A stretch of DNA of 63,930 nt, counting the filler, from Sandaracinaceae bacterium (GTDB lineage: Bacteria > Myxococcota_A > Polyangia > Polyangiales > JADJQN01): the NCBI GenBank assembly GCA_947483975.1. It is 3 parts of 3 records of this genome, joined end to end, with 100 filler letters (N's around TTAATTAATTAA, not from the genome) between each part and the next. Parts side by side here need not be neighbours in the genome. Positions count along the whole stretch, not along the records: positions 25,654 to 51,146 come from CANKOL010000030.1; 2 more parts are not named here. One strand, 5' to 3'. Both the position numbers and the translations under genes were made by a program. Shown here one piece after another: positions 25,554-42,706 of the stretch. Position 1 is the stretch's first letter; the number at the start of each line of letters is the position of its first letter. The notes under the pieces are model-generated. The model was given only the letters and a program-made list of their open reading frames with translations. It was not told the origin of the DNA and ran no database searches.

Positions 25554-25653
25554 NNNNNNNNNNNNNNNNNNNNNNNNNNNNNNNNNNNNNNNNNNNNTTA
25601 ATTAATTAANNNNNNNNNNNNNNNNNNNNNNNNNNNNNNNNNNNNNNNNNNNN
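25554..25653. other. Artificial contig linker / gap
   Basis: N-run + TTAATTAATTAA (stops in all frames) + N-run. Confidence 0.97.
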
Positions 25654-25925
25654 ACGACGTGCAGGCGGACCTCGCTGCGCACACAATGGGACGTCGCCGA
25701 CGGGCGCGAGGTCGCTGACGACTACATCACAGGAGCCGGCAGGTTCGTCTCGCGAGGGGCGGGCCTGCCGGTCGCCGCTTCCGCGCCCGCGCGGCCCTTT
25801 TCTTTGCCGACACGGTGCCGCCGGCGTCACGCCAGCGAGGGAGGCAAGGATGTCGGGCAACTGCGGGCGCTCGCTGCGCCGCCATAGCGGTTGCCTGGGC
25901 TCCGAGCCGATACACGATCACGCCG

Positions 25926-26684
25926 ATGGCTGCCTGTGATCAGACGAAGACCGTCGATGATCTTGTCGAACTGTGGACTGAGCTTGCCTCGATCCGTCTC
26001 GAACTGCAGCGACGCATCGCCATGTTGGGGACCTGCATTCTTGAGTCCGCGGACGGAAGGGCGGCGCTTTGTGATGATGGCCATGGCGATGTCGCCCGCC
26101 TCGCCCTGACCCATTTGGAGAACGAACTCGAATCGGCGCGTGCGGCCCTTGGTGCGTTCGAGAAGGAGCTTGCACGGCACCTGGGACGGGTCTCGCCACC
26201 GTGGGAGCTCCCTGCAAGGTTCGCGAACATCTCGGTGCCCGGCACTGCGCCCGAGCGACAGCAGGCGCTGCTTGCCGCCATCAAGGCCGTGATCCCGCTC
26301 ACGGGAGAGAGACTGAAGCACCTGCGTTCCCAGAAGAAGGCGAAGACGAAGGGCAGCTCGGCGGGTACGGGCAAGCCCCCGGTGATGGCCAACAAGGTGA
26401 CCCCATCCATCGCGCAGGCACGCCTGGCGAACGTCGCCCTGGCCTTGCTCCTGGCGGCTGACGCCGTTCACTCCCGGTTCAACCGAGCTCCCTATCGAAC
26501 GGGCAGTTGGGCCACCTCGATGAAGGTGATGGAAACGACGATCGAGGGTGACCAGGTCACGGAGATTCTTAGGGGAGAAGCCCGCGGCATCCGTGGGTCG
26601 GCGCGGGCCGCCGCTGAGGAGGTCGTCGGGCAGTTCATCGGCATCTCCGGCTCCGCGGTGCGGAAAGCGACCCGCAGCGGCTAG
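25926..26684 (+). CDS. Hypothetical (orphan) protein of the element
   Basis: About 252-aa ORF, helical, visibly lower GC. No motif recognised. Confidence 0.55.
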   Translation: MAACDQTKTVDDLVELWTELASIRLELQRRIAMLGTCILESADGRAALCDDGHGDVARLALTHLENELESARAALGAFEKELARHLGRVSPPWELPARFANISVPGTAPERQQALLAAIKAVIPLTGERLKHLRSQKKAKTKGSSAGTGKPPVMANKVTPSIAQARLANVALALLLAADAVHSRFNRAPYRTGSWATSMKVMETTIEGDQVTEILRGEARGIRGSARAAAEEVVGQFIGISGSAVRKATRSG

Positions 26685-26770
26685 CCTCGGCGGTAGGTCC
26701 GCTTGGAACGACTTGCCAGCGGAGTGTAAGGGAAGCGCCTCGGCATCAGCGGTACCTCGCGTCTACCGCC

Positions 26771-27046
26771 ATGAACCGAAGGTATCTGACGCTCGCTGAG
26801 GCTGCAGAAGTCGCGCGCGTCTCGACGAGCACGCTCCGCCACTGGATTCGAACTCGCGGTCTCCGCGCGTTTCGTCCGGGACGCCGGGTGCTGCTCGTCG
26901 AGACCGAGCTTCACGCCTTCGTCGAGCGCCGGACCCGAGGTCAGGCGGCGTGCGCCAACCAACAAAGTGAAACGCCGAGCCTTGCAGGGCTCGGCGCTTC
27001 CGGAGGTTCCGACGATGCCACCGCCGAACGCCAAAGCCAATGCTAG
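26771..27046 (+). CDS. Excisionase-like HTH (HTH_17) DNA-binding protein
   Basis: YLTLAEAAEVARVSTSTLRHWIRTRGLRAFRPGRRVLL pattern. Confidence 0.88.
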   Translation: MNRRYLTLAEAAEVARVSTSTLRHWIRTRGLRAFRPGRRVLLVETELHAFVERRTRGQAACANQQSETPSLAGLGASGGSDDATAERQSQC

Positions 27047-30000
27047 CTCAAGTCAGCCCGTCCCGCCTCCGCAAAGAGCTTTCGAGGTCCAGCTACGCGC
27101 CCGTGAACAGCCGGCTTCAACAGCGAGGCGCTTCAAGGAGCGCGACGTGCAGGCGACGCTCCTCAAGACACTGACAGCCGACGTCACGGTGCTGTCTGAA
27201 CCGATCCTCTCATGGTCGGCGGAGTGCGGCGCGGACGCAGTGTGCGTGGACATCGACGCCCCTGACGCCGAGAGCGCGCTGTCGCTGCATCACCTCGTGG
27301 ACCGATACTTCCCTGAGACGCTGCCCCGTCCCCTGTTCGCCTATCGCTCACATGGCGGCGGTCTGAAGGCCGTGTTCGTGAGCGTCGGCGGCGTCCCCGC
27401 GATTGATCTCGCAGCGGCCTGGTACGTGCTCGCGCCGCTCGGCGTGCTGGCAACGTGGCGGGCTGAGGTTAAGCGAGACCTGCGGCATCCGCGAGGCCTT
27501 CGCGAGCGGGATGGCGCGTCGGAGCGGTGCGGCCCGCTCGCACAGTTCTCCCCCTCGGCGAGGCTCGTGCTTCCACGGGAGACTGCAGCTGAGGCAAGCG
27601 CGAGCGATGTCGCTGACTGGCTCCAGGCGCACGATCTCGAGATGGGGCGTCGCTCCGCCGCGAACTGCCCGATGCCGGGCTGCGGACGAGAGACGGCGAC
27701 CTCGGGGTCGGACCCGATAGACGTCAGCGAGCGCGGCATCCGCTGCTTCCGCTGCAGCCGATTCGAGCGGTGGGGCAGCATCGTCTACGGCGCCGCAGGT
27801 CTCTCCGCGCTGGCCAGCGCGGCGCGCGAGCGGGTTCACTTTGGTCACCAGCGCTACGTGCTTCGGCACGCGCATCCGAAGGCCGACGAGTCGCTGCTGC
27901 GGCAAGGCTGGTGGGTGCTCCTGCACGCGGGAGCGCAGTGCTTCCCTCCGCCGCCCGAGGGATCGCCGGAGTGGGAGCCCTACGCCAAGGCGCGCCCGGC
28001 GTTTGCGGCCGCGATGAGCGACGACCTCGGACTCGTTCGAGGCGTCGATGGATCCTGGCTGCAGGCGGGGACGCTGCGGCGACGCATGAAGCTGACGACG
28101 ATTACGGCGCGCGCGCTGCCGTGGGTGTCCACGCCGTCGCGGGTCGATGAGGCACTCGACGTGCTTCCTCTCGCGGGGTTTCAGCCCGTCTACGCCGTCA
28201 ACCACGGCCTACTCCTGCCCCCACGGTTTCAACCGCCAGAAGGCGCGCTGCTCGTGCGGCGCGGGCCTGTCGATGGTGAGCTCGCCCCGGTGGATGTCTC
28301 GCGTCGGCCGAGCCCGCTCGAGGTGGAGGCTGCATGGGTCGAGCTCGAGCGCCTCCTGCCCGGGCTGGATCGAGGGTATCTCTCCGCTCTCGTTGCGGCT
28401 GCGCTGCGAGCTCACGACCCGACCGGCGTGCCACCGATGGCGGTGGTCACGGGCGGCTCCGGCGCCGGCAAGAACACCACGCTCGAGATCGCGGCGAGCA
28501 TCGTCGGCACGCGCGTCGCCGGCTGCAAGCTCAGCGATCCGAAGGAGACGTTGCGCGACTTCGGACTCGCGCTCGAAGACGGCTCCACGATCTTGAACGT
28601 CAACGAAGTCGGGCGAACGCCCGCGGTCTACGCGAAGTTGGAGGCCCTCCTTCGAATCGGCGCGACCCTCCGGTTCGACGCAAAGCACCGCAACGAAGTG
28701 ACCGTCCCCTTCCGGGCCGCCATCGTGATCACGGGCTCGACGCTGCCGCCGGCCGTCGTGAGAGCACCAGAGATTGCGCGGCGCACCGTGGCTTGGAGAT
28801 TGACGGCGCCGGACGGGCAGTGGCGACGCAACGGCGAGCTGAGCCGAGCGCGTCACAACGCTGCACTTCGAGGGCCGCTCGACATCGTCGCAGCGGACAT
28901 TTGGTGGCTGCTCGAGGGCGACCAGCGAGATTGGCAGGTCCTGGCTCGTGAGCGTTTCGGTGGTTCCGACGTCTCCGAGCTCGACCTCGAAGACCTTGGC
29001 GGCGAGGAGCGTGCCGGCTTCCTACATGCGCTCTATGAAGCGTATCGCACGGCGGATTTCAACTCCCACGTCGAGCTCCGCGGCGGGCCTGCCTGGCTTG
29101 CGATGCCTGCCCACGGCAGGTTGTTCCCGATGCTTGCAGAGCTCGTTGACGGTGACAACCCTGAGCGAGTCGCGGCGGTGCTTCACGACCTTGAGCGCGT
29201 GGACCTGGGACCGATCCTTGGTTTCAAGAAGCCGCGCTTCACGATTCTGATTCGACAGAAGCGCGGAGAATGGCGCTTCAAGGTGATTCAGGTTGACTGC
29301 CCGCGCGGCCGAGGCCTCCCGTGCGCAGAGTGGCCGGCCGCGACGCGCCGAGGAGAAGTCGAGCGGGTCAGCCCACTGGTCCGTCGCTCCGCGACGCTTG
29401 CGTGGCGCAACGTCACGTTCGACTCAATCCTCAATGAAAACAGCGTTACGCCCGTCACGCAGGCTTCTGAGGAGAAAGTTTCAGATGAAGAGGGCATAGA
29501 TGTCGCCTCAGCGGCGGAGGAAGCCGCCGTCGTGGCGTGCGTGACGAGCGTGACGCCGGAAACCGCGCTCGCGCTCCTCGCCGTCGGAGGTACGCTGGAG
29601 CTGCACGGTGCCGAGAATCCCGCCATCCGGTGGCAGGCCTCCGATGCCGCACCGCGCGCCGCCGTCGAGTGGGCGCAGGCCTGCAGGGTCATCGTCACGA
29701 GCGACGTCGTTGCGTCGGGCGTCCTGCCGCTGACGGATCCGAGCACCGTCGTCATCACGATGGCGTCCGCGGCGCGCATCACGGGGTCGGTCGTGCCGAC
29801 ATCGGTCGGTCCCAAGGCGGTCGCGGAGATGCTGAGCCTCGGGGCGCGCGTCTTCGTGCAGACGCCCGCCACCGAGCGAGACATCCTCGACGAAGACGGC
29901 ATCATCAACGCCCGCGGCTTCGCCATCGACGTCGAGCTCGCGCGCGCGCTGGCCGAGGTCGGCAACGAGTTCGCAGTGACGGCACAGACGGGAGCCGGGG

Positions 30001-31238
30001 TGGCGTCGGGAGACGTCAGCGATCCGCGGCGCCTCAAGGCCGCTCTCGCCGAGGCCGGTCTCGATGTGGCCGATGTTCAGCGCGGAACGCTCGAGGCCGC
30101 AGCCGACCGGTCAGACCTGTCGGACGACGCGCGACAGATCATCGACGCCCGCATCGCCACCGCGAGCAACACGACCTCCAAGTTGGCCGCGGCGCTCGAT
30201 GCCGTGCGGTTGGACGGGCGGGTGCGCGGCACCCTCGTCTACGCGGGCGCGCACACGGGGCGGTGGACCGGGCGCGGCTTCCAGCCGCAAAACCTGCCAC
30301 ACGGCCTCGAGACGGACGTCGAGCCGATCATCGCCGCGGTCATGGCGCACGACGTCAAGAAGTTGAAGGCGCACGCGAAGCGTCTCGGGGTCGCTGGCGT
30401 GCCGGCGCTCCTGCGGTCGCTTGTGCGCTCGATCATCGTCGCCAAGCCCGGGCACGTCCTCGTCGCGGGAGACTTCGCGCAGGTCGAGCCGCGGATCCTC
30501 GCCTGGCTCGCGGGCGACGACGCGAAGCTCGCGCTCTTCCGAGAGGGCACCGACGTCTACCGCGCGTTCGCAGCACCTCTTCTCGGGGTCGCGGCGACCG
30601 ACGTGACGGCGGCACAGCGCAGGCTCGGCAAGGTGGGCGAGCTCGGCTGCGGATACGGCATGAGTGCGGACCGCGCAGAGGAGTACGGCGAGACGCTGGG
30701 CGTCGAGTGGAGCAAGTCGGCGCTTACCGCGCAGGCGGTCGTCAGGGGGTGGCGCGCCGCAAACCCGCTGGTCGCAGGTGCAAGCGGGCTATGGAGCAAC
30801 TTCGAGCTCGCGTTCGGGCTCGCGCTCGAGGAGGACCACGAGCTCGGTCGCGTGAGCTTCGAAGGGGACGGGCCTGACGTTCTCGTCGAGCTGCCGTCCA
30901 CGCGGAAGCTGCGGTACCGCAACGTCGAGAGCGTGGTGGATGCCCAGGGACGCACCCAGATCAGCTACGAGCAGAAGGGACGCCGAGTCCGGACCTGGGG
31001 CGCGAAGCTGGTCGAGAACATCGTCCAAGCGATCGGTCGAGACCTCCTCGGCGACGCGCTCGTGCGGCTCGAGCGGAAGGGGCTCCCGCCGGTCTTGCAC
31101 GTCCACGACGAGGTCGTCGTCGAGGTGCCGCAGCCCGGGGACGCGACGCTCGTCGAGCGCCTGCTGGTCGAGCCTCCGTCATGGGCCACAGGACTGCCTC
31201 TTGCCGCAGAGGTCACCGTCGGCAGGAGGTACTCGTGA
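27015..31238 (+). CDS. Fused AEP primase - Zn finger - SF3-like helicase - family A DNA polymerase (~1407 aa)
   Basis: GGAGG RBS at 27002. VCVDID and YRSHGGGLK (AEP-like). CPMPGC...CFRC. GGSGAGKNT Walker A. PolA motifs HTGRWTG..QPQNLP, GDFAQVEPR, RRLGKVGELGCGYG, ENIVQAIGRD, LHVHDEVV. Confidence 0.85.
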   Translation: MPPPNAKANASSSQPVPPPQRAFEVQLRAREQPASTARRFKERDVQATLLKTLTADVTVLSEPILSWSAECGADAVCVDIDAPDAESALSLHHLVDRYFPETLPRPLFAYRSHGGGLKAVFVSVGGVPAIDLAAAWYVLAPLGVLATWRAEVKRDLRHPRGLRERDGASERCGPLAQFSPSARLVLPRETAAEASASDVADWLQAHDLEMGRRSAANCPMPGCGRETATSGSDPIDVSERGIRCFRCSRFERWGSIVYGAAGLSALASAARERVHFGHQRYVLRHAHPKADESLLRQGWWVLLHAGAQCFPPPPEGSPEWEPYAKARPAFAAAMSDDLGLVRGVDGSWLQAGTLRRRMKLTTITARALPWVSTPSRVDEALDVLPLAGFQPVYAVNHGLLLPPRFQPPEGALLVRRGPVDGELAPVDVSRRPSPLEVEAAWVELERLLPGLDRGYLSALVAAALRAHDPTGVPPMAVVTGGSGAGKNTTLEIAASIVGTRVAGCKLSDPKETLRDFGLALEDGSTILNVNEVGRTPAVYAKLEALLRIGATLRFDAKHRNEVTVPFRAAIVITGSTLPPAVVRAPEIARRTVAWRLTAPDGQWRRNGELSRARHNAALRGPLDIVAADIWWLLEGDQRDWQVLARERFGGSDVSELDLEDLGGEERAGFLHALYEAYRTADFNSHVELRGGPAWLAMPAHGRLFPMLAELVDGDNPERVAAVLHDLERVDLGPILGFKKPRFTILIRQKRGEWRFKVIQVDCPRGRGLPCAEWPAATRRGEVERVSPLVRRSATLAWRNVTFDSILNENSVTPVTQASEEKVSDEEGIDVASAAEEAAVVACVTSVTPETALALLAVGGTLELHGAENPAIRWQASDAAPRAAVEWAQACRVIVTSDVVASGVLPLTDPSTVVITMASAARITGSVVPTSVGPKAVAEMLSLGARVFVQTPATERDILDEDGIINARGFAIDVELARALAEVGNEFAVTAQTGAGVASGDVSDPRRLKAALAEAGLDVADVQRGTLEAAADRSDLSDDARQIIDARIATASNTTSKLAAALDAVRLDGRVRGTLVYAGAHTGRWTGRGFQPQNLPHGLETDVEPIIAAVMAHDVKKLKAHAKRLGVAGVPALLRSLVRSIIVAKPGHVLVAGDFAQVEPRILAWLAGDDAKLALFREGTDVYRAFAAPLLGVAATDVTAAQRRLGKVGELGCGYGMSADRAEEYGETLGVEWSKSALTAQAVVRGWRAANPLVAGASGLWSNFELAFGLALEEDHELGRVSFEGDGPDVLVELPSTRKLRYRNVESVVDAQGRTQISYEQKGRRVRTWGAKLVENIVQAIGRDLLGDALVRLERKGLPPVLHVHDEVVVEVPQPGDATLVERLLVEPPSWATGLPLAAEVTVGRRYS
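29443..29556. repeat. 18-bp inverted repeat pair made of CGTCACG/CGTGACG units; candidate replication origin
   Basis: GCGTTACGCCCGTCACGC (29443-29460) and GCGTGACGAGCGTGACGC (29539-29556) match 16/18 as reverse complements, with an AT-richer tract alongside. Confidence 0.6.
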
Positions 31239-31444
31239 GCAGCCCGGTCATCCTCATGTCGCCCGAGGACCTGCGCGAGCTCGTTCGCTCGGCCGTCGGA
31301 GAGGCGCTCGACGGTCAGCGTGCCGAAGAGCGCGCCGACGGGGCTGATGCAACCGACGCGTGCGTACCGGTTGCCGGGTCGGCTCTGACGGATCAGGTTG
31401 GCTTCGACCGTAGCGCGCTGGTCGCGTCGGGGAGGCGGTCGTGA
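31235..31444 (+). CDS. Small hypothetical protein
   Basis: GTGA overlap with the polymerase stop. MSSPVILMSPEDLRELVRSAVGEAL. Confidence 0.65.
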   Translation: MSSPVILMSPEDLRELVRSAVGEALDGQRAEERADGADATDACVPVAGSALTDQVGFDRSALVASGRRS

Positions 31445-31686
31445 GCAGGCCGTCCTCGCCCGGTTCAGAACCGGAGCTTGTGGTCGCGATGACCCGGACG
31501 GAGTTGCGGGCGATGCTCGCGGAAGTCGTACGGGAAGAAGTCTCTGCGCGTCGGTCGAAGATGAAGTCGCCGGCACGGAAGTCGGACGTGATCGAGGTGA
31601 GCGAGATGGACCGAGCAGCTGCTCGTGCGGCAGCCCGCCGCGTCGGCTTCATCGTGGGACCGGCGGGCGGGAGGGGGCGTCGATGA
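31441..31686 (+). CDS. Small hypothetical protein
   Basis: GTGA/ATGA overlaps at both ends. LVVAMTRTELRAMLAEVVREEV. Confidence 0.65.
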   Translation: MSRPSSPGSEPELVVAMTRTELRAMLAEVVREEVSARRSKMKSPARKSDVIEVSEMDRAAARAAARRVGFIVGPAGGRGRR

Positions 31687-33140
31687 GTCGAGAGACACTT
31701 CCGAGCGGCAAGGTTCGTGTGCGGGTCGTCGTGCGCGGCAAGCGAAGGACGCTCGGCGTCTACGAGACCGACGACGAGGCCGCCCGGATGGAGCGGGCGC
31801 ACGAGTCGAACATCGCCGACAGGATCATCGAGCGCCCGGACGGGAAGACGCTGCGGGTGTTCGGCCGCGAGTGGCTGGACGACCGCGAGGTGCGCGGCAA
31901 CAAGCGCGGGCGGCGCGTGAAGGACCTCGACTCCGAGCGCTCGATCTGGGCCACGCACATCGAGACGGCGGAGTTCGTGGACTGGCCGATGGAGTCGTTG
32001 CGCACGATCGACATCGAGGAACACGTCCGCGAGCTCGCCTCGCGCAAGGTAGTGCAGAGCGTTCGGACCAAGGTTGGTGTGGTGCTGCGCCAGCGGGAGC
32101 ACACGCTCGCGACGTCCACGATCAAGCATGCGCTTCGTGTGCTGCGACAGGTGCTCGATACCGCCGTCGCCAACGAGCTCGTGCCCCGAAACGTCGCCGA
32201 TGGAGTGGCCGCGCCGCACGCAGAGGGCGGTGAGGAAAGCTGGACGTGGTTGACGGAGGACGAGATCGCGCTCGTCGAGCGCAACGTGCCGGAGCCGTAC
32301 CGCACGCCGCTGCTCTTCGCGATCTTCATGGGCTGCAGGCAGATGGAACTCTGGCGCCTCCAGCGCGGTGACATCGACCTCGTCGGTGGATGGCTCCTCG
32401 TTCGAGAAGGCGCAGACGGCTCGACGAAGTCGGGCAAGGTCAGAAAGGCTCCGCTGCTCCCGCAGGCCCGCGCACTCATCGAGGCGTGGCTCGCGAGGAC
32501 ACCACGCGCGCCGGCGTCAGACCTGCTCTTCGCCGCCCCCCGAGGCGAGCCGTATGCGAAGGGCTACGACGGCGGCTGGGATGATCGTAACGAGTGGCAC
32601 CCGCTTGCGGAGCTCGAGGCTCTCCGAGAGGACGAGCGGGCCGGCAAACTCCGCGTCGTCAAGATCGACAAGCAGGCTCGGCGGGTGCTCGTCGCGGTCG
32701 CGCGATGGCGCACGAAGGCCGGGATCACCCGCGGCGTTCGGTTCCATGACCTTCGCCACACCTGCGCCTCGCATCTCGTACAAGGGACGTGGGGACGGAA
32801 GTGGCGGCTGGAAGAAGTTCGCGACTTCCTGGGGCACAGCTCGATCTCGGTGACGCAGCGCTACGCACATCTCAGCCCCGACGGCTTGCTGCGCGCTGCG
32901 CGAGAGACCGTGGGAAGTGCGCCGACGGCGCGCACGTCGCTCGCAATCGTGCCCACGGAGCGCCCACGAGCGGTCCAAGTCGTTGAAAATACAGGCGAGA
33001 GTGCGGATCTTCTAAGCCGACGGTCCCGCGTTCGATTCGCGGTGGGCGCGCTCCTTGTTTTACAAGGGGATGAGCCGCTTTTCGCGGGGTGGATTGTCGA
33101 GCGGCGGGCGGCCGACCGGCGCGGCGCGTCTAGCGCGTGA
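31683..33140 (+). CDS. int: Tyrosine recombinase / integrase
   Basis: Catalytic GCRQMEL (R), TKSGK (K), FHDLRHT (HxxR), LGHSSISVTQRYAH (H, Y). ATGA coupling to the upstream ORF. Confidence 0.95.
   Translation: MSRETLPSGKVRVRVVVRGKRRTLGVYETDDEAARMERAHESNIADRIIERPDGKTLRVFGREWLDDREVRGNKRGRRVKDLDSERSIWATHIETAEFVDWPMESLRTIDIEEHVRELASRKVVQSVRTKVGVVLRQREHTLATSTIKHALRVLRQVLDTAVANELVPRNVADGVAAPHAEGGEESWTWLTEDEIALVERNVPEPYRTPLLFAIFMGCRQMELWRLQRGDIDLVGGWLLVREGADGSTKSGKVRKAPLLPQARALIEAWLARTPRAPASDLLFAAPRGEPYAKGYDGGWDDRNEWHPLAELEALREDERAGKLRVVKIDKQARRVLVAVARWRTKAGITRGVRFHDLRHTCASHLVQGTWGRKWRLEEVRDFLGHSSISVTQRYAHLSPDGLLRAARETVGSAPTARTSLAIVPTERPRAVQVVENTGESADLLSRRSRVRFAVGALLVLQGDEPLFAGWIVERRAADRRGASSA
33009..33051 (+). 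other. att site: duplicated 3' half of tRNA-Arg(TCT)
   Basis: CTTCTAAGCCGACGGTCCCGCGTTCGATTCGCGGTGGGCGCGC contains the TCT anticodon loop, T-arm (CCGCG-TTCGATT-CGCGG) and 3' acceptor strand. No 5' half or CCA. Confidence 0.85.
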
Positions 33141-33912
33141 GGCAGCGCGCGGAGGTGCGCAGCATCAGCTGGTAGTCGAGGTCTTGGGGGCTGACCGTCG
33201 CCAGGATGCGCGCCCGATCGGCGAGGCCGACGTTGCAGAAGCCGGCGTCGACGTAGCACTGCTCGTGGCTCGCGAAGGCTGCCGCGCGGACGTCGGTGCA
33301 GGTGGCGGTCGGGGCGATGTCGGACTCCATCACGCGCATCAGGCACCGCCGAACGTCGTGCATGAAGGCTCGTCCGACGGGCGTCATATGGGGCGTGGTG
33401 ACTTGCATGTAGCGGAGGCAGTACGCGTAGCCGAAGCCTTGGTAGTAGCCCGCATCGCCGCAGCTCATGGGCGCTTGGGCGTCGCGACAAAGGTAGTAAT
33501 CGCACTGCGCGCAGTCTTCGCGGTCGATGTACGCGGCACAGCTAGACTCGAGGCCGGCGACGCCGCAGCCCGGGACGCTGCACGCCGAGTACACCCCGAG
33601 GCGGCAGAGGAGGTTCGCGGCGCGATCCGACTTGTCGTCGCCGAAGGCGCTGCACGGCTCAGCCAAGATCGCCGCGGCGTCGTCGGCGTTGCACGCGCTC
33701 TCCGCAATCTCGACCCCGAGGCAGGTCGTGACGTGCGCGCGCGCGTCCGCGCAGAGCGCGTCGGAAGTGGCCGGAGAGGCGTCGACGGCGCAACCCGCGA
33801 CGGCAGCGATGAGCGGCAGCGCGAGCAGGGTCAGGCTTCGTGAGGAGAGCAGCACGGATGGGAGCGCCGATCGAGTGGAGGGCGGAGAGGCGAGCGCAAC
33901 TATGCGCGCCAC
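33130..33912 (-). CDS. Cys-rich lipoprotein with stanniocalcin-like domain
   Basis: VAGC lipobox. C.YY.C...CG..GY..GFG..YC...G..FM..V..CL...C..V...AF.SH..CY...GFC pattern. Start may be GTG 33855. Confidence 0.7.
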   Translation of the reverse strand: MARIVALASPPSTRSALPSVLLSSRSLTLLALPLIAAVAGCAVDASPATSDALCADARAHVTTCLGVEIAESACNADDAAAILAEPCSAFGDDKSDRAANLLCRLGVYSACSVPGCGVAGLESSCAAYIDREDCAQCDYYLCRDAQAPMSCGDAGYYQGFGYAYCLRYMQVTTPHMTPVGRAFMHDVRRCLMRVMESDIAPTATCTDVRAAAFASHEQCYVDAGFCNVGLADRARILATVSPQDLDYQLMLRTSARCLTR

Positions 33913-33960
33913 CGGCGCGTGGGCCAGCAGGGAGACTTGCCGTGTCTCCGGCCCGGGGAG

Positions 33961-33988
33961 CCCGCGTCCGATTCGCGGTGGGCGCGCT
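33961..33988 (+). repeat. Second, degenerate copy of the tRNA-Arg 3' end (older att scar)
   Basis: CCCGCGTCCGATTCGCGGTGGGCGCGCT is 27/28 identical to 33025-33052. Confidence 0.85.
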
Positions 33989-34035
33989 GCCTCGGGGTGA
34001 GGCTTCTCTCGCGCTGTGCGCGCTTGGAGCGTCGG

Positions 34036-34404
34036 TCAGTGGCGATGCAGGTGCAGGCCACCGGGCATCATGGCCGCCGCGATGACGCCCATCAGGATCG
34101 ACCCGAGCAACATCACGAGCGTGAAGGCGACGAGCGAAGCGCCCGCCGCGCCCAGGAAGAACGAGAAGTCGGCCCAGCGACGCGCGGGGTCGGCTGCGTC
34201 GAGCGTCTTTCGGCCACGCCAGCCTGCGAAGAGCGCGTAGAACCAGCCGAGCACGCTGACAGGCATCACGATCGTCGTGATGCCACCGGTGAACGGCAGC
34301 AGGCATCCAGCCAGGAAGAAGAGCGCGTTCGACAGGACGCCGACGATGACGCCGCTTCGCGCGATGGCGCGGTTGACTCCAGTGATGCCGCTCGAATCCG
34401 TCAC
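34036..34404 (-). CDS. Small membrane protein
   Basis: 122 aa with about 3 hydrophobic segments. Confidence 0.6.
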   Translation of the reverse strand: MTDSSGITGVNRAIARSGVIVGVLSNALFFLAGCLLPFTGGITTIVMPVSVLGWFYALFAGWRGRKTLDAADPARRWADFSFFLGAAGASLVAFTLVMLLGSILMGVIAAAMMPGGLHLHRH

Positions 34405-34463
34405 AGGCGGCTACTGTATCGCGCTCTGCTGAGAGCGCGCGAGCGGCGTCGTCTGCGCGGCGC

Positions 34464-35669
34464 TCAAACTCGCACACGCTGCGCCGCCGCGAGGAGCGCG
34501 CTCGGGTAGACGACCCCGCGCCACTCGATGCCACGCAGGCGCGCGCCGACGAGGCCAGAGCGCAGCGAGAGCCAGGCGATGCCGAGAAAGCCGAGCGGCC
34601 AGAGCAGCGCGGCGCGCCACGGGCGCCCTGTGACCGACGCGGCGAGGGCGACGGCGACGGTCATCGCGACGTAGCCTGTCGCGCACAGCACGCGGAGTGG
34701 CGCGGACACAGGGAGGAGCGCTGCAACGGCAGAGAGGGCGATCCACGAGGCGAAGAGCGACAGCGCGATCGCCCGCAGTAGCGAGAAGCGCGCCATGATC
34801 GCGAAGAAGTTCTTTTGCATCGCGCGCGCCATCTCGCCGAAGGACGCGTACCACTCGAGGGTGACCTCGGCTCTCGCGTTGACGATGGCGCACTTGCCAC
34901 CGTGAGTCTTCATCAGGAGCATCAGCCCAAAGTCGTCGGCGACCTCGAGACGGAGCCACTCGAAGCCGGGCGTCCGGTCGAAGGTGGCTTTGCGCACGAG
35001 GATGAACGCGCCAGTCGCGGCGACGTGTCGCGACCTCGGGTCCACTACACTTCTCAGGCGATCATCGTTGCTCATCAAGGCGAGTGAGACGTCGAATACC
35101 GCATCTCCGAGCAGGCCCGCGGTGGTCATTTGAGGCACGACAGACAGGCAATCTAGCTGGTTGCGAACTGCATACGAAATCGCGCGCTTCACCGTGCGCT
35201 GGCCGAGATGCGCGTCTGCGTCCATCAGCAGAAGCCACTCGCCGTCGCCGCGCGAAGCGCCGACCTGCAGCGCATGGACCTTGCCGAGCCAGCCTTCGGG
35301 CAGTTCGCGGATGTGCTCGACCGTCAGGCGGGGGTCCTCTCTCGCGAGGGCATCGAGTAGCGCGCCCGTCGCGTCGGTCGAGCGGTCGTCTACCGCGATG
35401 ACGGAGACGTCGGGATAGTCGAGGGACAGCATGCTTCGCACGGCGCTCTCGACGTGGCGCTCCTCGTTGCAGGCGGGAGTCACGATGTGGAGTCGCGGCC
35501 AGTGGTCGCGCTCTTCGTAGGGCACGCGGCGCAGCTCGGGGAGTCGCCACAGCCCACGCACGGTCGACGCGAGCGTGTACACGCCGATCAGCGCGGGCAC
35601 GACGACGATGAGCAGGTAGGCGAGCGTCACGGAGGCGTCAACATAGGCGAAGCGCCCGCGAGGACGCAA
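34464..35669 (-). CDS. Glycosyltransferase family 2 with TM segments
   Basis: TPACNEE, DDRSTD, GWLGKVHAL, MDAD, VADDF motifs. Start uncertain. Confidence 0.9.
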   Translation of the reverse strand: MRPRGRFAYVDASVTLAYLLIVVVPALIGVYTLASTVRGLWRLPELRRVPYEERDHWPRLHIVTPACNEERHVESAVRSMLSLDYPDVSVIAVDDRSTDATGALLDALAREDPRLTVEHIRELPEGWLGKVHALQVGASRGDGEWLLLMDADAHLGQRTVKRAISYAVRNQLDCLSVVPQMTTAGLLGDAVFDVSLALMSNDDRLRSVVDPRSRHVAATGAFILVRKATFDRTPGFEWLRLEVADDFGLMLLMKTHGGKCAIVNARAEVTLEWYASFGEMARAMQKNFFAIMARFSLLRAIALSLFASWIALSAVAALLPVSAPLRVLCATGYVAMTVAVALAASVTGRPWRAALLWPLGFLGIAWLSLRSGLVGARLRGIEWRGVVYPSALLAAAQRVRV

Positions 35670-35798
35670 AAGGCGCGCTCGAGGACGGCCGAGCGCTCGC
35701 TATTCGTGGGCCAAATCAGGCACGATGAGGCGGTGAAGGAAACTCGGGACGATTCACGCAGCGCCGCTCGGCCCACGCTCGACGGGGGCGCTGGAACG

Positions 35799-36266
35799 AT
35801 GCCGTGCTCGCTCGCGCGGCGCTCGCAGCGACTCGTCTCGGCGCTCTGCGGCTTGCTCGCGCTCGGCACCGCCTCGGCGGCCGTGGCGTTGTCTCCTCCC
35901 GCGCGAGCGGGCGGCGCCAAGGTGCAGCAGTCGGTCTGCAACGTGACCGGGGCGTGGCGCGGGACGGGCCTGGACGTCGCGGGCACGCGCTGGCGATTCG
36001 AGCTCTCGCTGACGCAGGCCGACACCGCCGTCGAGGGCTTCTTCGACTGGCACGCGGGCGGAGGGGATGACGGGAGGGAGCGCGTCGCCGGGCGTGTCGA
36101 CTGCCGCGCGCGGCGCCTCGCGCTCCGTGGAGTCGCCCTCGAGCACGCGCCGGCGCTCGCCCTCGCGCGCTACGAGCTCGGCCTGAATCCCGCGTTCACG
36201 GTGCTCGCGGGGCGCTGGCTCGGTGGCGTTCCGGGCACGCTTCGCGCCACGCGCGTCGCGCAGTGA
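35799..36266 (+). CDS. Hypothetical secreted beta-rich protein
   Basis: Signal peptide and VTGAWRG motif. Confidence 0.55.
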   Translation: MPCSLARRSQRLVSALCGLLALGTASAAVALSPPARAGGAKVQQSVCNVTGAWRGTGLDVAGTRWRFELSLTQADTAVEGFFDWHAGGGDDGRERVAGRVDCRARRLALRGVALEHAPALALARYELGLNPAFTVLAGRWLGGVPGTLRATRVAQ

Positions 36267-36323
36267 GGGTGTGACGGGGGCGTTCGCGGTCGTCGATCGC
36301 GGCGAGTCGCCTCGCCCGCGCGC

Positions 36324-36908
36324 TCAGAGGGGCGCGCCCGAGTCGATCCAGCGGAGGAGTTCGAGTCGCTCCGCGCAGGACGGTCGTGGCTCGACGGGCG
36401 GCATATAGGCCGATACTCCGACGTCGTAGCGAATCAGCACCAGATTGGCGTGCACGGCGGCGGGCACGTTCCAGTCGAGGCCCAGCGGTGCGTAGTTGCG
36501 CTCGACGGCCGTGACGAGCGTCGAGGAGTGGCAGGACGCGCAATACACGCCGAAGAACATCGGTCCGGCCCACGTCGTGTAGGTGTGTCCGCCGAGGTCC
36601 TCGCCGGGCGCGGCGGTCGCCTCGGGGTGCGGCACGCAGCCGTGGACCAACCCCGCGTCGAAGCCGGCGTCGGCCGTGGTGCTCGCGTCGGCGTCGGTGC
36701 TGGCGTCTGCCGCTGCGCTCGCGTCGTCGTCGCCCGCGTCGACCGATGTGCCTGCGTCGTCGCGCGGCCCAGCGTCGTCGGGGCGCGTGCCGGAGTCGCC
36801 TCCGGCATCGGCGAGCGTACCCGCATCGGCCGCGGGGGAAGTGTCGTCGCCGCAGGCAGAGAGGCCCGCGAGCAGCAGCGTAACGAAGACCGCGAGACGT
36901 AAGTGCAT
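36324..36908 (-). CDS. Lipoprotein with a single c-type heme motif
   Basis: LSAC lipobox, DAG linker, CASCH, MPP and W..SGAP motifs. Confidence 0.75.
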   Translation of the reverse strand: MHLRLAVFVTLLLAGLSACGDDTSPAADAGTLADAGGDSGTRPDDAGPRDDAGTSVDAGDDDASAAADASTDADASTTADAGFDAGLVHGCVPHPEATAAPGEDLGGHTYTTWAGPMFFGVYCASCHSSTLVTAVERNYAPLGLDWNVPAAVHANLVLIRYDVGVSAYMPPVEPRPSCAERLELLRWIDSGAPL

Positions 36909-36994
36909 CGCCACAGCATGGCAGAGTCGCGCCTCGTTCGGCGCCGGGGCGATTTGCCTTTCGCGCCGGGGCCTGTCGCGCGACGCTCGGCGCC

Positions 36995-37894
36995 GTGAAG
37001 AACTTCGCCCACCTGCCTCCCACGACTCGGCTCGGAGACCTCGAGGTCTGTCGCCTCGGCTTCGGCGCCATGCAGCTCCCCGGGCCGATGGTCTGGGGCC
37101 CGCCCCGCGATCCGGCAGCCGCGCGCGCCGTGCTGCGGCGCGTCGTGGAGCTCGGGATCAACCTGATCGACACCTCTTGGTACTACGGGCCTCATGTCTC
37201 GAACGCGCTGATCGCCGAGACGCTGCACCCCTATTCGGACGACCTCGTGCTCGTCACCAAGCTCGGCGGTCGGCGCACCGACGACAAGGGTTGGGCGTCG
37301 GCGCTGCGTCCCGAGGAGCTCCGAAAGGGCTGCGAGGAGGACCTCCGCGCGCTCAAGCTCGAGCGCATCGACGTCGTTCATCTGCGCTGGATCGGCCACA
37401 CCGAGGTGCCGTTTCGCGAGGCGCTCGACGCGATGATCGCCCTGCAGCAAGAGGGCAAGATTCGACACCTCGCGCTCAGCAACGTCTCGCCGGCGCAGCT
37501 GCGCGACGCGCTCGCGCGCACGCCGATCGTCGGCGTGTCGAACCTCTACAACGTCGCGCACGGCGAGCAGCGCCTCGGCAGCTTGCCGCACGCGTCGACC
37601 GAAGGGCAGGAGGAGATCGTCGACCTCTGCGCCGCGAACGGCCTCGCGTTTCTGCCGTTTTTCTCGCTCGCGATCCCCGGTCCGCCGCGTCGCAACGAGG
37701 CGCTGAGCAGCGTCGCCGCGCGCCTCGGCGCGACCGAGACGCAGGTCGCCCTCGCGTGGCTGCTCGCGCGCTCGCCGACCATCGTGCCGATCCCCGGCAC
37801 GAGCTCGCCCGCGCACCTCGAGCAGAACTGGGCCGCGCGGACGCTCGCGCTGAGCCAGGAGGACTTCGACGCAATCTCCGCGGCGCGCGCGTAG
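36995..37894 (+). CDS. Aldo/keto reductase
   Basis: RLGFGAMQL, IDTSWYYG, GKIRHLALSN, IPGTSS motifs. Confidence 0.92.
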   Translation: MKNFAHLPPTTRLGDLEVCRLGFGAMQLPGPMVWGPPRDPAAARAVLRRVVELGINLIDTSWYYGPHVSNALIAETLHPYSDDLVLVTKLGGRRTDDKGWASALRPEELRKGCEEDLRALKLERIDVVHLRWIGHTEVPFREALDAMIALQQEGKIRHLALSNVSPAQLRDALARTPIVGVSNLYNVAHGEQRLGSLPHASTEGQEEIVDLCAANGLAFLPFFSLAIPGPPRRNEALSSVAARLGATETQVALAWLLARSPTIVPIPGTSSPAHLEQNWAARTLALSQEDFDAISAARA

Positions 37895-37974
37895 GCGGTG
37901 CAGCGGAGACGCCCTCGCAGCGCCGAACTTTGCGCCGCGGTCGGCGCCGAAATCGAGGTAAAGTCACAGCCACG

Positions 37975-39582
37975 ATGACTCGACAAGCTGTCCTCTGCAC
38001 GCTCGCGTGGATGGTCGTGGCGGGCTGTGCCACGGGCTCGCGCCGGGACCCGGTGCCGACGCCCGGCTACGACGCTGGGCACGTCGACTTCGGGGTGCGC
38101 GACGCCGGGCAGGTCGATCTCGGCAGCGACGCCGGCGCAACGGACCTCGGGCTCCCCGACGTGGACCTCGGGCTGCCCGACGTGGATCTCGGGCTGCCCG
38201 ACGTGGACCTCGGGCTGCCCGACGTGGATCTCGGGCTTCCAGGCACCGACGCGGGCGTCGATTCCGGTGTGGATTCGGGAGTCGATTCTGGGGTGGATTT
38301 GGGCGTCGACGCGGGCGTCGACCGCTGTCGGCGGGTCGATTGCTCCGCGCTCACGGCGGGTTGCTTCGTCGGAGTCTGCGTGCCGGCGACGGGCGCTTGT
38401 ACGGCGACCGCGGTGCCCGATGGGACGGCGTGCAGCGACGGAAACACCTGCACTGCGGGCGACGCGTGCAGCGCGGGAGTGTGCGCGGGAGTTGCCACCG
38501 ATTGCTCGGCGCTCTCCGGCGCGTGCGGGGCGGGCGCGTGCGATGCGACGACGGGAGGCTGTCATGTCGTGCCGGTGATGGACGGCACGAGCTGCGGGGC
38601 GATGAGCGGCTGCGCGTCGCCGCTCTGCGCGGCGGGCGCGTGCGTGTCCGTGCCGAGCGCGGACTGCGTAGCTTGCGGCCCCGGTTCGGTGTGCGCTGCG
38701 GGGCTCTGCGGCGCGCCTCCGACGACGCTCACCTACGACTTCGAGAGCGGCGTCGTCCCGGCGGGCTGGACCAACGGCGCAGGCGGTACGGCGCCGTGGA
38801 CCCTCGTGTCCGGGCGCACGCACGGCGGCACGGGCGCGCTGAGGTCAGGCGCGATCGGGGACGGCGCCGTGTCGCGCATCTCGATGCCCATCACGTTGTC
38901 GACCGGCGCGACGATGTCGTTCTGGCTCAACACCTCCACCGAGACCTGCTGTGACCATCTGGAACTCTGGGTGGACGGAGTGCTGAGCGGGCAGTGGCAG
39001 GGCACCACCGCGTGGACGCAGGCGAGCGCGGCGGTCTCCGCGGGCGCGCACACGCTCGAGTGGCGCTACACGAAGGACGGCTCCGTCTCGAGCGGCTCGG
39101 ACGCCGTGTGGATCGACGATGTGACGTTCGCGCTCGAGAGCAGCCCCAACACGGGCTTCGAGGGCAGCGCGGCCCTGCCGGCGGGCTACACGACGGGCGG
39201 CACTCTGCCGTGGGTCATCGACGCCTCGATCCCGCACGCGGGAGTGAACGCCGCGGCGAGCGGGCGCATCACGCACTCGCAGACGAGCTCGATGTTCCGC
39301 TCGGTGAACGTCGCGAGTCCGTCGCCGCTCACGTTCTGGTATCGAGTGCAGACTGAGTCTTGCTGTGACCATCTCCTCGTCTACGACAACGGCGTGCAGC
39401 TCGCGTCTTATCAGGGCGATGTGCCTTGGACGCTGGCGACCTTCACGCTCGCGACGGGCCCGCATCGGCTCGAGTGGCGCTACTCGAAGGACAGCTCCGT
39501 TTCGACGGGGCTCGACCGCGCCTTCGTCGACGACATCGACTTCGGCTTCACGCCCGGAACCGGCCCGCTCTGTGGTCTGTAA
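37975..39582 (+). CDS. Cys-rich lipoprotein with two tandem jelly-roll-like domains
   Basis: VAGC lipobox. Twice-repeated FW...ETCCDHL...G.H.LEWRY.KD.SVS.G.D...DD module. Confidence 0.75.
   Translation: MTRQAVLCTLAWMVVAGCATGSRRDPVPTPGYDAGHVDFGVRDAGQVDLGSDAGATDLGLPDVDLGLPDVDLGLPDVDLGLPDVDLGLPGTDAGVDSGVDSGVDSGVDLGVDAGVDRCRRVDCSALTAGCFVGVCVPATGACTATAVPDGTACSDGNTCTAGDACSAGVCAGVATDCSALSGACGAGACDATTGGCHVVPVMDGTSCGAMSGCASPLCAAGACVSVPSADCVACGPGSVCAAGLCGAPPTTLTYDFESGVVPAGWTNGAGGTAPWTLVSGRTHGGTGALRSGAIGDGAVSRISMPITLSTGATMSFWLNTSTETCCDHLELWVDGVLSGQWQGTTAWTQASAAVSAGAHTLEWRYTKDGSVSSGSDAVWIDDVTFALESSPNTGFEGSAALPAGYTTGGTLPWVIDASIPHAGVNAAASGRITHSQTSSMFRSVNVASPSPLTFWYRVQTESCCDHLLVYDNGVQLASYQGDVPWTLATFTLATGPHRLEWRYSKDSSVSTGLDRAFVDDIDFGFTPGTGPLCGL
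38143..38310 (+). repeat. 21-bp (DLGLPDV x4) and 12-bp (VDSG) coding tandem repeats
   Basis: Directly visible. Confidence 0.85.
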
Positions 39583-39600
39583 TAGAGGAAATACCCCCTG

Positions 39601-40635
39601 ATGATCACGCCTGGAGAGACCGTCGATCGTGTGGTGGGGCTGCTGTCGCACGCGCTGCATGGGTGGCGCGGGGTGGAGGTCAACACGGCCGACGACCTCG
39701 GTCCGTACCTCGATCTTCCCGCCGAGGTGATGTTTCCGCGTCCCGTCGTGCCGCGCGACATGAAGCTTCACAAGGCGCGCTTGCGCCTCGGCGCGCGCGT
39801 GACCGACACGCTGCGCTGGCACAGCCAGCACGTCCCTCTTTGTCCGCACTACCGGGTGCGGCACGCGGGCGAGTACTTGCTCAATCAGCGCGTGACGGCG
39901 CGCTGGATTCACCCGCGCACGGGTCCACGCAAGCGCGCGCTCGTGTACGTGCACGGCTGGCTCGAGCCTGGCCCGTGGGTCGAAGAGGCGGCGCTGCTCC
40001 CGCACTTTCACGACGCGCTCGGCGTCGATGTGTTCCACGTTCAGCTGCCTTTTCACGGCAGCCGGAACCCGCGCAGCGCGCTCTTCCATGGGGAGTTCTT
40101 CTGGAGCGCGGATCTCGTTCGGACGGTCGAGTCCGTGCGTCAGTCGCTGATCGACGTGCGCACGCTGATCGCCTGGCTCCGCGCGACGCAGGGCTACGAG
40201 CAGATCGGCGTGACGGGCATCAGCCTCGGCGGCGGGATCACGATGGCGCTCGCGTGCGTCGACCCGCCCCCCGACTACATCATCCCGATCATCGCGCACC
40301 TCAAGCTGGGCGAGGCGGTCGAAGAGGCGCCGATCCTCTGGCGCATGAAGTCCGATCTCGAGCGCTTCGGGATCGACCGCGCGCACCGCAAGGAGCTCTT
40401 TCGCCGCATCGGGCTCGAGACGCTCACTCCCGTGCTCGCGCCTTCCCAACAGCTCTGGATTCCCGCGACCGACGACGCGTACATCACCGCGCCGCTCGTC
40501 ACGCAGCAGTGGCACGAGTGGGGCGAGCCCCCGATCGAGTGGCTCAAGGGCGGCCATATGACGTTCCCGCTCTCGCTCGGCCGTATCTCCGCGCGGATGA
40601 AGGACTTCGTCGACGCGCAGCCAATCCGGCGCTGA
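39601..40635 (+). CDS. Alpha/beta hydrolase
   Basis: VHGW, PFHGSR, GVTGISLGG nucleophile elbow, GGH. Confidence 0.85.
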   Translation: MITPGETVDRVVGLLSHALHGWRGVEVNTADDLGPYLDLPAEVMFPRPVVPRDMKLHKARLRLGARVTDTLRWHSQHVPLCPHYRVRHAGEYLLNQRVTARWIHPRTGPRKRALVYVHGWLEPGPWVEEAALLPHFHDALGVDVFHVQLPFHGSRNPRSALFHGEFFWSADLVRTVESVRQSLIDVRTLIAWLRATQGYEQIGVTGISLGGGITMALACVDPPPDYIIPIIAHLKLGEAVEEAPILWRMKSDLERFGIDRAHRKELFRRIGLETLTPVLAPSQQLWIPATDDAYITAPLVTQQWHEWGEPPIEWLKGGHMTFPLSLGRISARMKDFVDAQPIRR

Positions 40636-40719
40636 ACGGCTCGTGTCTCGCTCTACACTGCAGGCTCTCGCAGCGCTCGTCGTTCTCATCGTTCTTCACT
40701 TCCCCTTCGGAGACTCCTA

Positions 40720-41220
40720 GTGCGTCAATCCACTCTGTTCGTCGCTCTCATCGTCCTCTCGTTCGGCTGCTCCGAGCGGCACGCCGCGACGGACACGGAC
40801 TGGGGTGTGCCCATCGATGCGCGGGTCGATGACGGAGGCGCGTCGCTCGACGCCGCGTCGATGCCGGTCGACGCCGCGTCGATGCCGGTCGATGCCGCGT
40901 CCAGCGACGGCGCCGTGCTCGACGCAGGGCATGCGGGCGACGGTGGCGCGCTGACGGCCGAGTCCGTCTGCGCGGGGCTGTGTCCGGCGCTCTCCGTGTG
41001 CGCAGGTTCGACTCCCTCCGCGACGTGCACCGCAGATTGCTCGGCCGACCTCGCCGACTGCTCGGCTGCGCAACTCGAGTCGCTCGCCGCTTGCAACACG
41101 GCGGGCTGCGCGATGAGGGCGATGGCGCCGGCGATCGTCGAGTGTCTGACGATGGTCGCGTGCATCGGCACAGGTGCCCCGCCGCCGCCTCCGACGCCGG
41201 TGCCTATGCCCGGCAGCTGA
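40720..41220 (+). CDS. Small Cys-rich lipoprotein
   Basis: SFGC lipobox and 21-bp DAASMPV repeats. Confidence 0.65.
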   Translation: MRQSTLFVALIVLSFGCSERHAATDTDWGVPIDARVDDGGASLDAASMPVDAASMPVDAASSDGAVLDAGHAGDGGALTAESVCAGLCPALSVCAGSTPSATCTADCSADLADCSAAQLESLAACNTAGCAMRAMAPAIVECLTMVACIGTGAPPPPPTPVPMPGS

Positions 41221-41224
41221 GCGC

Positions 41225-42631: not shown

Positions 42632-42706
42632 CTCACGCGGCGCGTCGCACCCTCGCGCGCTCCACGCACTTGCCGCGCGCGGCCGAGGGCCCCATCGTCT
42701 CGCGAC

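Follow-up and report, generated by a model that had tools for sequence, protein, structure and literature searches.

A candidate tRNA-Arg(TCT) island with a predicted primase–helicase–polymerase fusion in a Sandaracinaceae bacterium

Gene content and extent of the visible element

The window analysed here, a stretch of 63,930 nucleotides (nt) from a Sandaracinaceae bacterium (assembly GCA_947483975.1), consists of three contigs joined by N/TTAATTAATTAA spacers. Contig C29 covers positions 1–25553 and contig C30 positions 25654–51146. The spacer between them occupies 25554–25653, so that the subject of this study, a putative integrative element at a tRNA-Arg(TCT) gene, becomes visible exactly at the start of C30. 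The original prediction had placed a contig break at this left end, and that is what was found. The visible part (25654–33051, approximately 7.4 kb) is the right-hand, integrase-proximal arm. Six co-oriented plus-strand open reading frames (ORFs) fill 25815–33140: orf1, an HTH_17 gene, an ORF of 1407 amino acids (aa), two small ORFs and an integrase gene. The features are as follows:

25654–25814, plus strand: left visible edge (contig start), with a terminator-like hairpin and T-run at 25781–25804
25926 (ATG) or 25815 (GTG) to 26684, plus strand: orf1, an orphan of 252 aa or 289 aa, no family
26771–27046, plus strand: HTH_17/excisionase-family DNA-binding protein (Xis/AlpA-like), 91 aa; PF12728, phrog_66, TIGR01764
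27015–31238, plus strand: predicted fused replicase, 1407 aa, assigned from a profile, a structure model and conserved columns
27015–27794, plus strand: predicted primase domain like those of archaeo-eukaryotic primases (AEP), residues 1–260; D79-x-D81, S112-H113, G116 and E151 conserved
28302–29354, plus strand: predicted superfamily 3 (SF3) helicase, residues ~430–780; Walker A GGSGAGKNT (K486), Walker B E531, R589/R590
29871–31232, plus strand: family A DNA polymerase domain, residues 953–1406; PF00476; phrog_17, E 1.6e-68
31235–31444, plus strand: small ORF, 69 aa, GTGA-coupled to the replicase stop, no family
31441–31686, plus strand: small ORF, 81 aa, GTGA-coupled, no family
31683–33140, plus strand: tyrosine integrase, 485 aa, ATGA-coupled; PF00589, phrog_1
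33009–33051, plus strand: attR, a displaced 3' tRNA-Arg(TCT) fragment of 43 nt, from the anticodon loop to the 3' end

The gene order and the coupled junctions of the original prediction (27015/27046, 31235–31238, 31441–31444 and 31683–31686) were recovered in the sequence. The replicase ATG at 27015 sits 32 nt within the HTH gene, after GGAGG. The following junctions overlap by GTGA at 31235–31238 and 31441–31444 and by ATGA at 31683–31686, with a GGAGG-like stretch before each. The six-ORF array forms one translationally coupled operon. A sigma-70-like promoter was searched for in the element and none was found.

The 91-aa protein matched HTH_17 (PF12728, E 5.1e-11), the 'excise' model TIGR01764 (E 6.9e-12) and phrog_66. 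No family was found for orf1 or either small ORF in Pfam, PHROGs or NCBIfam. Among 5.8 billion proteins, orf1 had no relative except itself, and its Atlas model (pLDDT 0.43) gave no match of at least 0.9. The small ORFs were ruled out as mutual paralogues (E 2.1, not significant), and the bin contained no paralogues of element proteins besides the host polA and two distant integrases. A 32-nt near-perfect palindrome at 26969–27000, within the 3' end of the HTH gene and directly before the replicase ribosome-binding site, may be an operator or attenuator. The orf1 ATG is closely preceded by a 29-codon ORF (25850–25939) that has a strong ribosome-binding site (GGGAGG) and a stop overlapping the ATG region; it may encode a leader peptide or be due to chance.

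Five metagenome runs of one lake study contained most of the stretch, and the Logan contigs of four of them (X1, X3, X4 and X5) were mapped. A contig of run X3 continues for 520 nt to the left of the C30 start, and one of X4 for 152 nt, so the element exceeds 7.4 kb and its left arm is at least 520 nt longer than the part seen. The hairpin at 25781–25804 suggests that a further plus-strand unit lies upstream of it. From window position 25819, one contig each in X3 and X5 matched rightwards and carried at least 255 nt of different sequence leftwards; this break falls just past the hairpin. Variants of the element may thus differ in the left arm attached to the backbone that runs from orf1 to the integrase gene. 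End overlaps linking C30, or the tRNA-bearing contig C419 described below, to other contigs were not found in the bin, and an exact 45-nt pattern from the C30 start had no match in metagenome contigs.

The fused replicase

The 1407-aa protein is predicted to combine a primase, an SF3 helicase and a non-proofreading family A polymerase in one chain. Its profile match was confined to the C-terminal third (residues 953–1406, family A polymerase). No Pfam, PHROG or NCBIfam model matched the primase/helicase part (N-terminal ~780 aa), so this label rests on a structure model and is shown by no profile library.

The polymerase domain had intact motifs A, B and C in an alignment with Taq polymerase (equivalents of DYSQIELR, RRxAK..YG and HDE), and the check was repeated in an alignment to 17 relatives, as expected of a family A enzyme. 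Residues ~800–950 are without Exo I–III motifs and form a degenerate exonuclease-like linker; the set expected of an active 3'–5' exonuclease (Exo I DxE, Exo II, Exo III) was absent from the query. Exo I (DxE) was present in 10 of 18 aligned C-terminal regions, while Exo I–III were all absent in the query and in its two closest relatives, P0002 and P0003. Because the loss is common to these two relatives, which are about 53–57% identical, it points to a stable clade trait and not to recent decay. The polymerase domain was closest to phage polymerases, with 30–36% identity to those of Microcystis, Glutamicibacter and Jersey-like Salmonella phages. For the N-terminal 950 aa, a search of 50,697 phage records (E 1e-5) and a pattern scan of IMG/VR both came back empty.

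An AlphaFold model of residues 1–800, built on 38 sequences, reached a mean pLDDT (predicted local distance difference test) of 88. Foldseek against the PDB matched it to poxvirus D5/E5, the SaPI5 primase-helicase (7ola), NrS-1 CTR (6lrb) and PriRep1 (7pds), with E values from 2.5e-6 to 1e-4, and African swine fever virus PrimPol and E1 were also among the matches. By sequence, the helicase region gave P-loop matches only, and a profile search of PDB sequences did likewise. K486, E531 and R589/R590 were conserved in the family alignment, and the catalytic columns were kept across 38–41 family members. The Foldseek matches together with conserved K486 and E531 support an SF3 ATPase fold with Walker A and B motifs.

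The predicted primase domain had D79, D81 and G116 invariant or at least 90% conserved, with S112-H113 present. A Zn-type motif (C218, C244, C247, H278) follows just after it. A separate model of residues 1–310 (pLDDT 89) had as its best Foldseek match the AEP domain of cyanophage S-2L PrimPol, weakly (E 1.8e-3). The longest VIA alignments were with AEP enzymes: RepB' (Z 6.5, 138 residues), Prim-PolC (Z 5.9, 159 residues), the LigD polymerase (Z 5.2) and S-2L PrimPol (Z 5.1). The Z scores for the primase, 5.0–6.5, lie below the chance level of ~7–8 given by the tool. Because these structural matches were weak, the AEP call also rests on the conserved columns.

Integrase and attachment site

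The integrase matched PF00589 Phage_integrase (E 4.4e-21) and phrog_1 (E 2.7e-48), as expected of a tyrosine integrase. It had no close phage relative (identity at most 28%), and no Mx8 record was among the best 12 of 27 matches.

The element ends at a tRNA-Arg(TCT) 3' fragment, as originally predicted: attR (33009–33051) was 43/43 identical to C419:4385–4427. This is part of an intact tRNA-Arg(TCT) gene with which contig G000:C419 ends, directly after a tRNA-Pro(TGG) gene. The original prediction had named the lack of a tRNA-Arg(TCT) with an identical 3' half as the finding that would speak against it; such a gene exists, by synteny just upstream. A 21-nt part of the fragment, with up to 3 mismatches allowed, occurred twice in the window versus 0.02 times expected by chance. 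The intact tRNA gene and the displaced fragment lie on two contigs (C419 and C30), and their adjacency comes from synteny with the same-genus genome G400, in which a tRNA-Pro/tRNA-Arg pair is followed by 8.6 kb of unrelated DNA and then by the block of C30:17016 onward. Because this synteny joins the tRNA pair to the C30:17016 block, we infer that C419 is the chromosomal neighbour just upstream of C30, in the same orientation. Judged from these sequences, tRNA-Arg(TCT) and its displaced fragment flank the element, whose integrase gene lies on the attR side.

The reading frame of the integrase stays open to 33140; it crosses the 43-nt core and has its last 29 codons in flanking DNA. The integrases of Mx8 and SSV also extend across attP, according to a paper that cites the Mx8 IntP work (PMC4383910). 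A distantly related locus, G579, contains an integrase gene (L040 18598–20003, G579:C85) that reads antisense into an intact tRNA-Asp gene, its last residues being encoded by the tRNA. At 31698–31791, runs X1, X3 and X4 contained a diverged copy of the 5' end of the integrase gene, which over 94 nt differs at 8 positions and by 1 gap and starts a 3314-nt contig leading elsewhere. A second, related integrase, absent from the bin, may occur in the same community.

Relatives of the replicase and their islands

An exhaustive phmmer search with residues 1–950 gave 414 cluster representatives (50% identity) at E ≤0.001. They fell into two length classes, ~800–900 aa and ~1400–1600 aa. Among 25 hand-picked members that were scanned, all 12 of at least 1385 aa carried DNA_pol_A (one of them 0.3 bits below the cut-off) and 3 had an exonuclease domain. 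None of the 13 shorter members carried DNA_pol_A, nor any Pfam domain beyond weak P-loop matches. Close relatives were limited to P0002 and P0003 in 5.8 billion clusters, about 57% and 54% identical over the full-length alignment; P0003 is encoded on a 589-kb contig. Pattern searches with the replicase protein or with alignment A1 yielded no locus in genome, metagenome or viral contigs. No relative was found by protein in 400 genomes across the phylum, where profile A2 gave P-loop matches only. Three were found in 400 genomes of the order, and four, two of them new, in 383 genomes of one family. Their loci are arranged as follows:

G579: tRNA-Asp; integrase reading into the tRNA; HTH_17; three unknowns; fused 1499-aa gene with intact exonuclease motifs; unknowns; TIR-domain gene
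G581: integrase; HTH_17; primase-helicase; PolA (ATGA overlap); three unknowns; Eco57I/MmeI-type methylase
G440: unknown; HTH_3; primase-helicase; PolA; on a 5.2-kb contig
G765: tRNA-Met; integrase; Dam methylase; HTH_17/AlpA; primase-helicase; PolA; then a long same-strand run

PolA is fused to the primase-helicase in G579, whereas neighbouring genes encode the two in G581, G440 and G765. The same-strand run of G765 encodes an SNF2 helicase, a large N6 methylase, a PLD nuclease, a second SNF2 protein, Mrr, a DEAD helicase and an MZB/DUF1998 protein. This cargo (L054 and L052, G765:C3:90000–129999), which we take to be DISARM-like, lies downstream of the primase-helicase/PolA backbone. The G579 island spans no more than 13.2 kb before a block that its congeners also have, and carries TIR-domain and DUF2188 proteins at its far side; the congeners do not keep both flanks together, so its length is bounded only. 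Two of the four related islands carry methylase (restriction-modification-like) or DISARM-like cargo. No virion, terminase, portal or conjugation match was found in the scanned ORFs of the four loci, and att repeats were searched for at the G579 and G765 islands and none were found. The islands around the related backbones vary in size, the smallest being at most ~13 kb and the largest, with its defence cargo, over 40 kb. These sizes, together with the longer left arm in another assembly, do not bear out the original description of the element as compact.

Metagenome depth

Logan contig depths are not copy numbers, as the tool itself warns. In the four mapped runs they were:

X1: element contigs 10.6–12, flank 13.7–14.5
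X3: element contigs 3.5–8.7, flank 12.1
X4: element contigs 4.8–8.3, flank 16.1–16.9
X5: element contigs 4.2–5.8, flank 5.4–7.6

Element contigs were shallower than the flank in all four runs, and the element was more fragmented than the flank. The raised coverage that the original prediction had looked for was not seen. The depth pattern suggests that the element is carried by part of the population, as a presence/absence polymorphism. The 43-nt core formed a Logan contig of its own (depth 39.8 in X1), and the tRNA 5' half appeared as a loose end before 33009. Many 20–21-nt joints were discounted as short-sided, and parts that no Logan contig covered were given no weight.

Class of element and comparison with known systems

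None of the ORFs in the visible 7.4 kb belonged to a capsid, terminase, portal or conjugation family (Pfam, PHROGs, NCBIfam), in agreement with the absence of capsid, terminase and conjugation genes noted originally. The bin (81% complete) had no match to PF03354, PF03237, PF05065 or PF04860 (TerL_ATPase, Terminase_6N, Phage_capsid and Phage_portal), which did match in control genomes. This bin-wide negative lowers the probability of a prophage and does not remove it. Neither a relaxase or type IV secretion system nor an FtsK-type translocase was found among the visible ORFs (Pfam, NCBIfam); no genome-wide search for these was made.

A module of the satellite type is present, consisting of integrase, regulator and primase-helicase. 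Helper-packaging genes (small terminase, capsid-size, head-adaptor) were not found in the visible 7.4 kb, and we know of no helper phage for this element. The original comparison to phage-inducible chromosomal islands or satellites is not borne out, the visible part having shown no gene for packaging or for redirecting capsids. The comparison to pipolins fails on the polymerase: the sole polymerase is of family A (PF00476, phrog_17), and the primer-independent family B polymerase (PolB) is absent.

Pipolins are defined by that primer-independent family B polymerase (PMC7385651). They resemble the present element as integrative elements at a tRNA gene that bring their own DNA polymerase, which here is of family A and comes with a separate primase domain. 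Islander-class tRNA islands (PMC4383910) have in common with it a tyrosine integrase, a displaced 3' tDNA from the anticodon loop, a frame across att and a tandem older fragment; here only one end is on the contig. Bacterial AEP primases have been reported in integrated elements, mostly at tRNA genes (PMC5862659). The AEP primase-helicase elements and P4/SaPI satellites (Kazlauskas 2018, PMC5862659; SaPI5 7ola) combine an integrase, an AlpA/Xis-type HTH protein and an N-terminal primase fused to a D5-like SF3 helicase at tRNA genes, as seems to be the case here. In our element, however, the chain continues into a family A polymerase, no Pfam, PHROG or NCBIfam model covers the N-terminal 780 aa, and packaging or capsid-remodelling genes were not seen in the visible part.

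Phages are known with a primase, an SF3 helicase and a polymerase in one polypeptide: Pas55 of Actinoplanes phage phiAsp2 is a DnaG-SF3-PolA fusion and gp55 of Lactococcus phage 1706 an SF3-AEP-PolB fusion (PMC4889955). The protein described here differs in its predicted AEP + SF3 + PolA make-up with a dead exonuclease, and in its place in an integrated island in which no virion gene was seen. AEP-PolA fusions have been noted in PolA cluster 8 (Czernecki 2023, PMC10201439), and in staphylococcal cassette chromosome (SCC) elements a truncated family A polymerase accompanies a D5-like helicase and recombinases (PMC10061031). PolA cluster 8 and the CcPol-MP-helicase operons resemble our element in that mobile or accessory DNA beside a site-specific recombinase carries a PolA together with a primase or helicase, either fused or as separate genes. 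The cluster 8 fusion, however, is described without helicase or island context (PMC10201439), and CcPol is truncated, primes with a partner single-stranded DNA-binding protein and travels with serine recombinases (PMC10061031). No report of an AEP-SF3-PolA fusion on an integrative island was found in open-access text, supplements excluded.

Flank beyond attR

The DNA next to attR contains one further feature:

33130–33988, unstranded: remnant, probably of an older insertion, outside the element; a lipoprotein-like ORF and a second tRNA fragment

The ORF (33130–33912, minus strand) is Cys-rich and lipoprotein-like and has no family. The second tRNA-Arg 3' fragment (33961–33988) spans 28 nt with 1 mismatch and is probably the scar of an older insertion. 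A tRNA-Gly(GCC) called by ARAGORN at 33906–33987 was rejected as a chimera on this second fragment; Rfam finds no tRNA in 25654–35000. The following 8.7 kb (33989–42668) encode a glycosyltransferase, an aldo-keto reductase, a hydrolase and an amidase and have no DNA match in G400, whose corresponding place has 8.6 kb of other DNA. From this comparison, 33989–42668 appears as a variable region adjoining the tRNA gene.

Discussion

We lean, by a small measure, towards reading the visible part as the arm next to the integrase of an island that integrates site-specifically at the 3' end of tRNA-Arg(TCT), brings its own replication enzyme and has no virion genes in the part seen. The original prediction holds in its core, namely that an element encoding its own polymerase is integrated at tRNA-Arg(TCT). 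In such an island the integrase would recombine the 43-nt cores, with the HTH_17 protein as directionality factor or regulator; this recombination would release a circle and restore the tRNA locus. On the circle, the 1407-aa protein would work as a minimal replisome in which the AEP domain primes, the SF3 helicase ring unwinds and the non-proofreading family A polymerase extends. The last 29 residues of the integrase would come from the flank when integrated and from the left end of the island when excised, as reported for Mx8 IntP. The unseen left arm would more likely hold cargo, as in the relatives, than virion genes.

Several observations weigh against this reading. The left arm is absent from C30, and virion, conjugation or cargo genes may sit there; the hallmark search covered four Pfam families in an 81%-complete bin, and the left arm may be unbinned. 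Iterons or origin-like repeats were searched for in the element and none were found. Coverage was not raised, so there was no sign of replication in these samples, and neither attL, a circular attP nor an empty site was bridged, the Logan contigs ending at the 43-nt repeat. The AEP assignment is structurally weak (Foldseek E 1.8e-3; Z 5–6.5). The relatives in the order and family are 35–39% identical, their gene order differs and their island ends are not mapped. Finally, primase-helicase-polymerase triple fusions occur in true phages (PMC4889955).

The last point belongs to an explanation that we consider unlikely though worth serious attention, namely that the visible 7.4 kb are the integration-replication arm of an ordinary temperate phage, with the genes for virion structure and lysis in the left arm that was not assembled. 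The original prediction had allowed for a prophage left arm, and the at least 520 nt of additional left arm leave room for one. The phage-like polymerase domain (phrog_17; 30–36% identity), the triple fusions reported in phages (PMC4889955) and the precedent of phage Mx8 for an integrase reaching across attP (PMC4383910) would also fit. The N-terminal 950 aa, however, were unmatched in the phage records and in the IMG/VR pattern scan. The four related loci had methylase or DISARM-like cargo instead of virion matches in their scanned ORFs, and the bin lacked matches to two terminase families, the HK97 capsid and one portal family, although phage contigs may be unbinned. It is still less probable that the locus is an immobile, decaying island remnant that no longer excises or replicates. 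A degraded older insertion with its 28-nt fragment does adjoin it, the polymerase has lost its exonuclease motifs, and the Logan contigs, which break at the 43-nt repeat, showed neither a circular junction nor raised coverage. Decay would nevertheless be hard to reconcile with six ORFs that are all open, intact coupling signals, an attR identical to the tRNA at 43/43 positions and the retention of the polymerase, Walker and AEP motif residues. The exonuclease loss is common to the two closest relatives, and the lower depth of the element than of the flank in all four runs suggests presence/absence polymorphism.

We give equally little credence to a third explanation, in which the island is copied passively along with the chromosome and the replicase-like protein has a different function, for instance in damage tolerance or in defence against incoming DNA. 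A precedent is reported for Thermus ICETh2, where loss of the primase-polymerase left element replication unaffected and the enzyme was linked to defence against environmental DNA (PMC7693054). Related backbones lie in defence-rich islands, and no origin was found in the element. On the other hand, a primase, a hexameric helicase and a polymerase are the set needed for replication, and the fusion or gene pair is conserved beside the integrase and HTH_17 genes. The closest structures to the model are replicative primase-helicases of viruses and SaPI5.

Beyond the preferred reading of a tRNA-Arg(TCT) island with its own replication enzyme, we put forward a broader proposal, which is tentative and more doubtful. 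The backbone of HTH protein, AEP primase-SF3 helicase of an unmodelled family, PolA and tyrosine integrase might represent an undescribed lineage of self-replicating tRNA islands. These would carry a complete priming-unwinding-synthesis machine (here one exonuclease-dead polypeptide of 1407 aa), replicate after excision without the host replicase and ferry defence cargo, as a family A counterpart of the PolB self-synthesizing elements. The kind of element itself is known; what is new here is mainly that its primase-helicase belongs to a family without a profile model and is fused to a PolA with a dead exonuclease.

The N-terminal primase-helicase appears to be a sizeable family without a Pfam, PHROG or NCBIfam model that is repeatedly fused or adjacent to PolA. 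If the prediction is true, a single priming, unwinding and synthesising polypeptide would be a compact model for replisome coupling and possibly a tool enzyme. Should the islands not replicate themselves, the locus would be one more tRNA island. If they do, they would represent a family A route to self-replicating integrative elements, which could help to explain the spread of defence cargo in this bacterial order.

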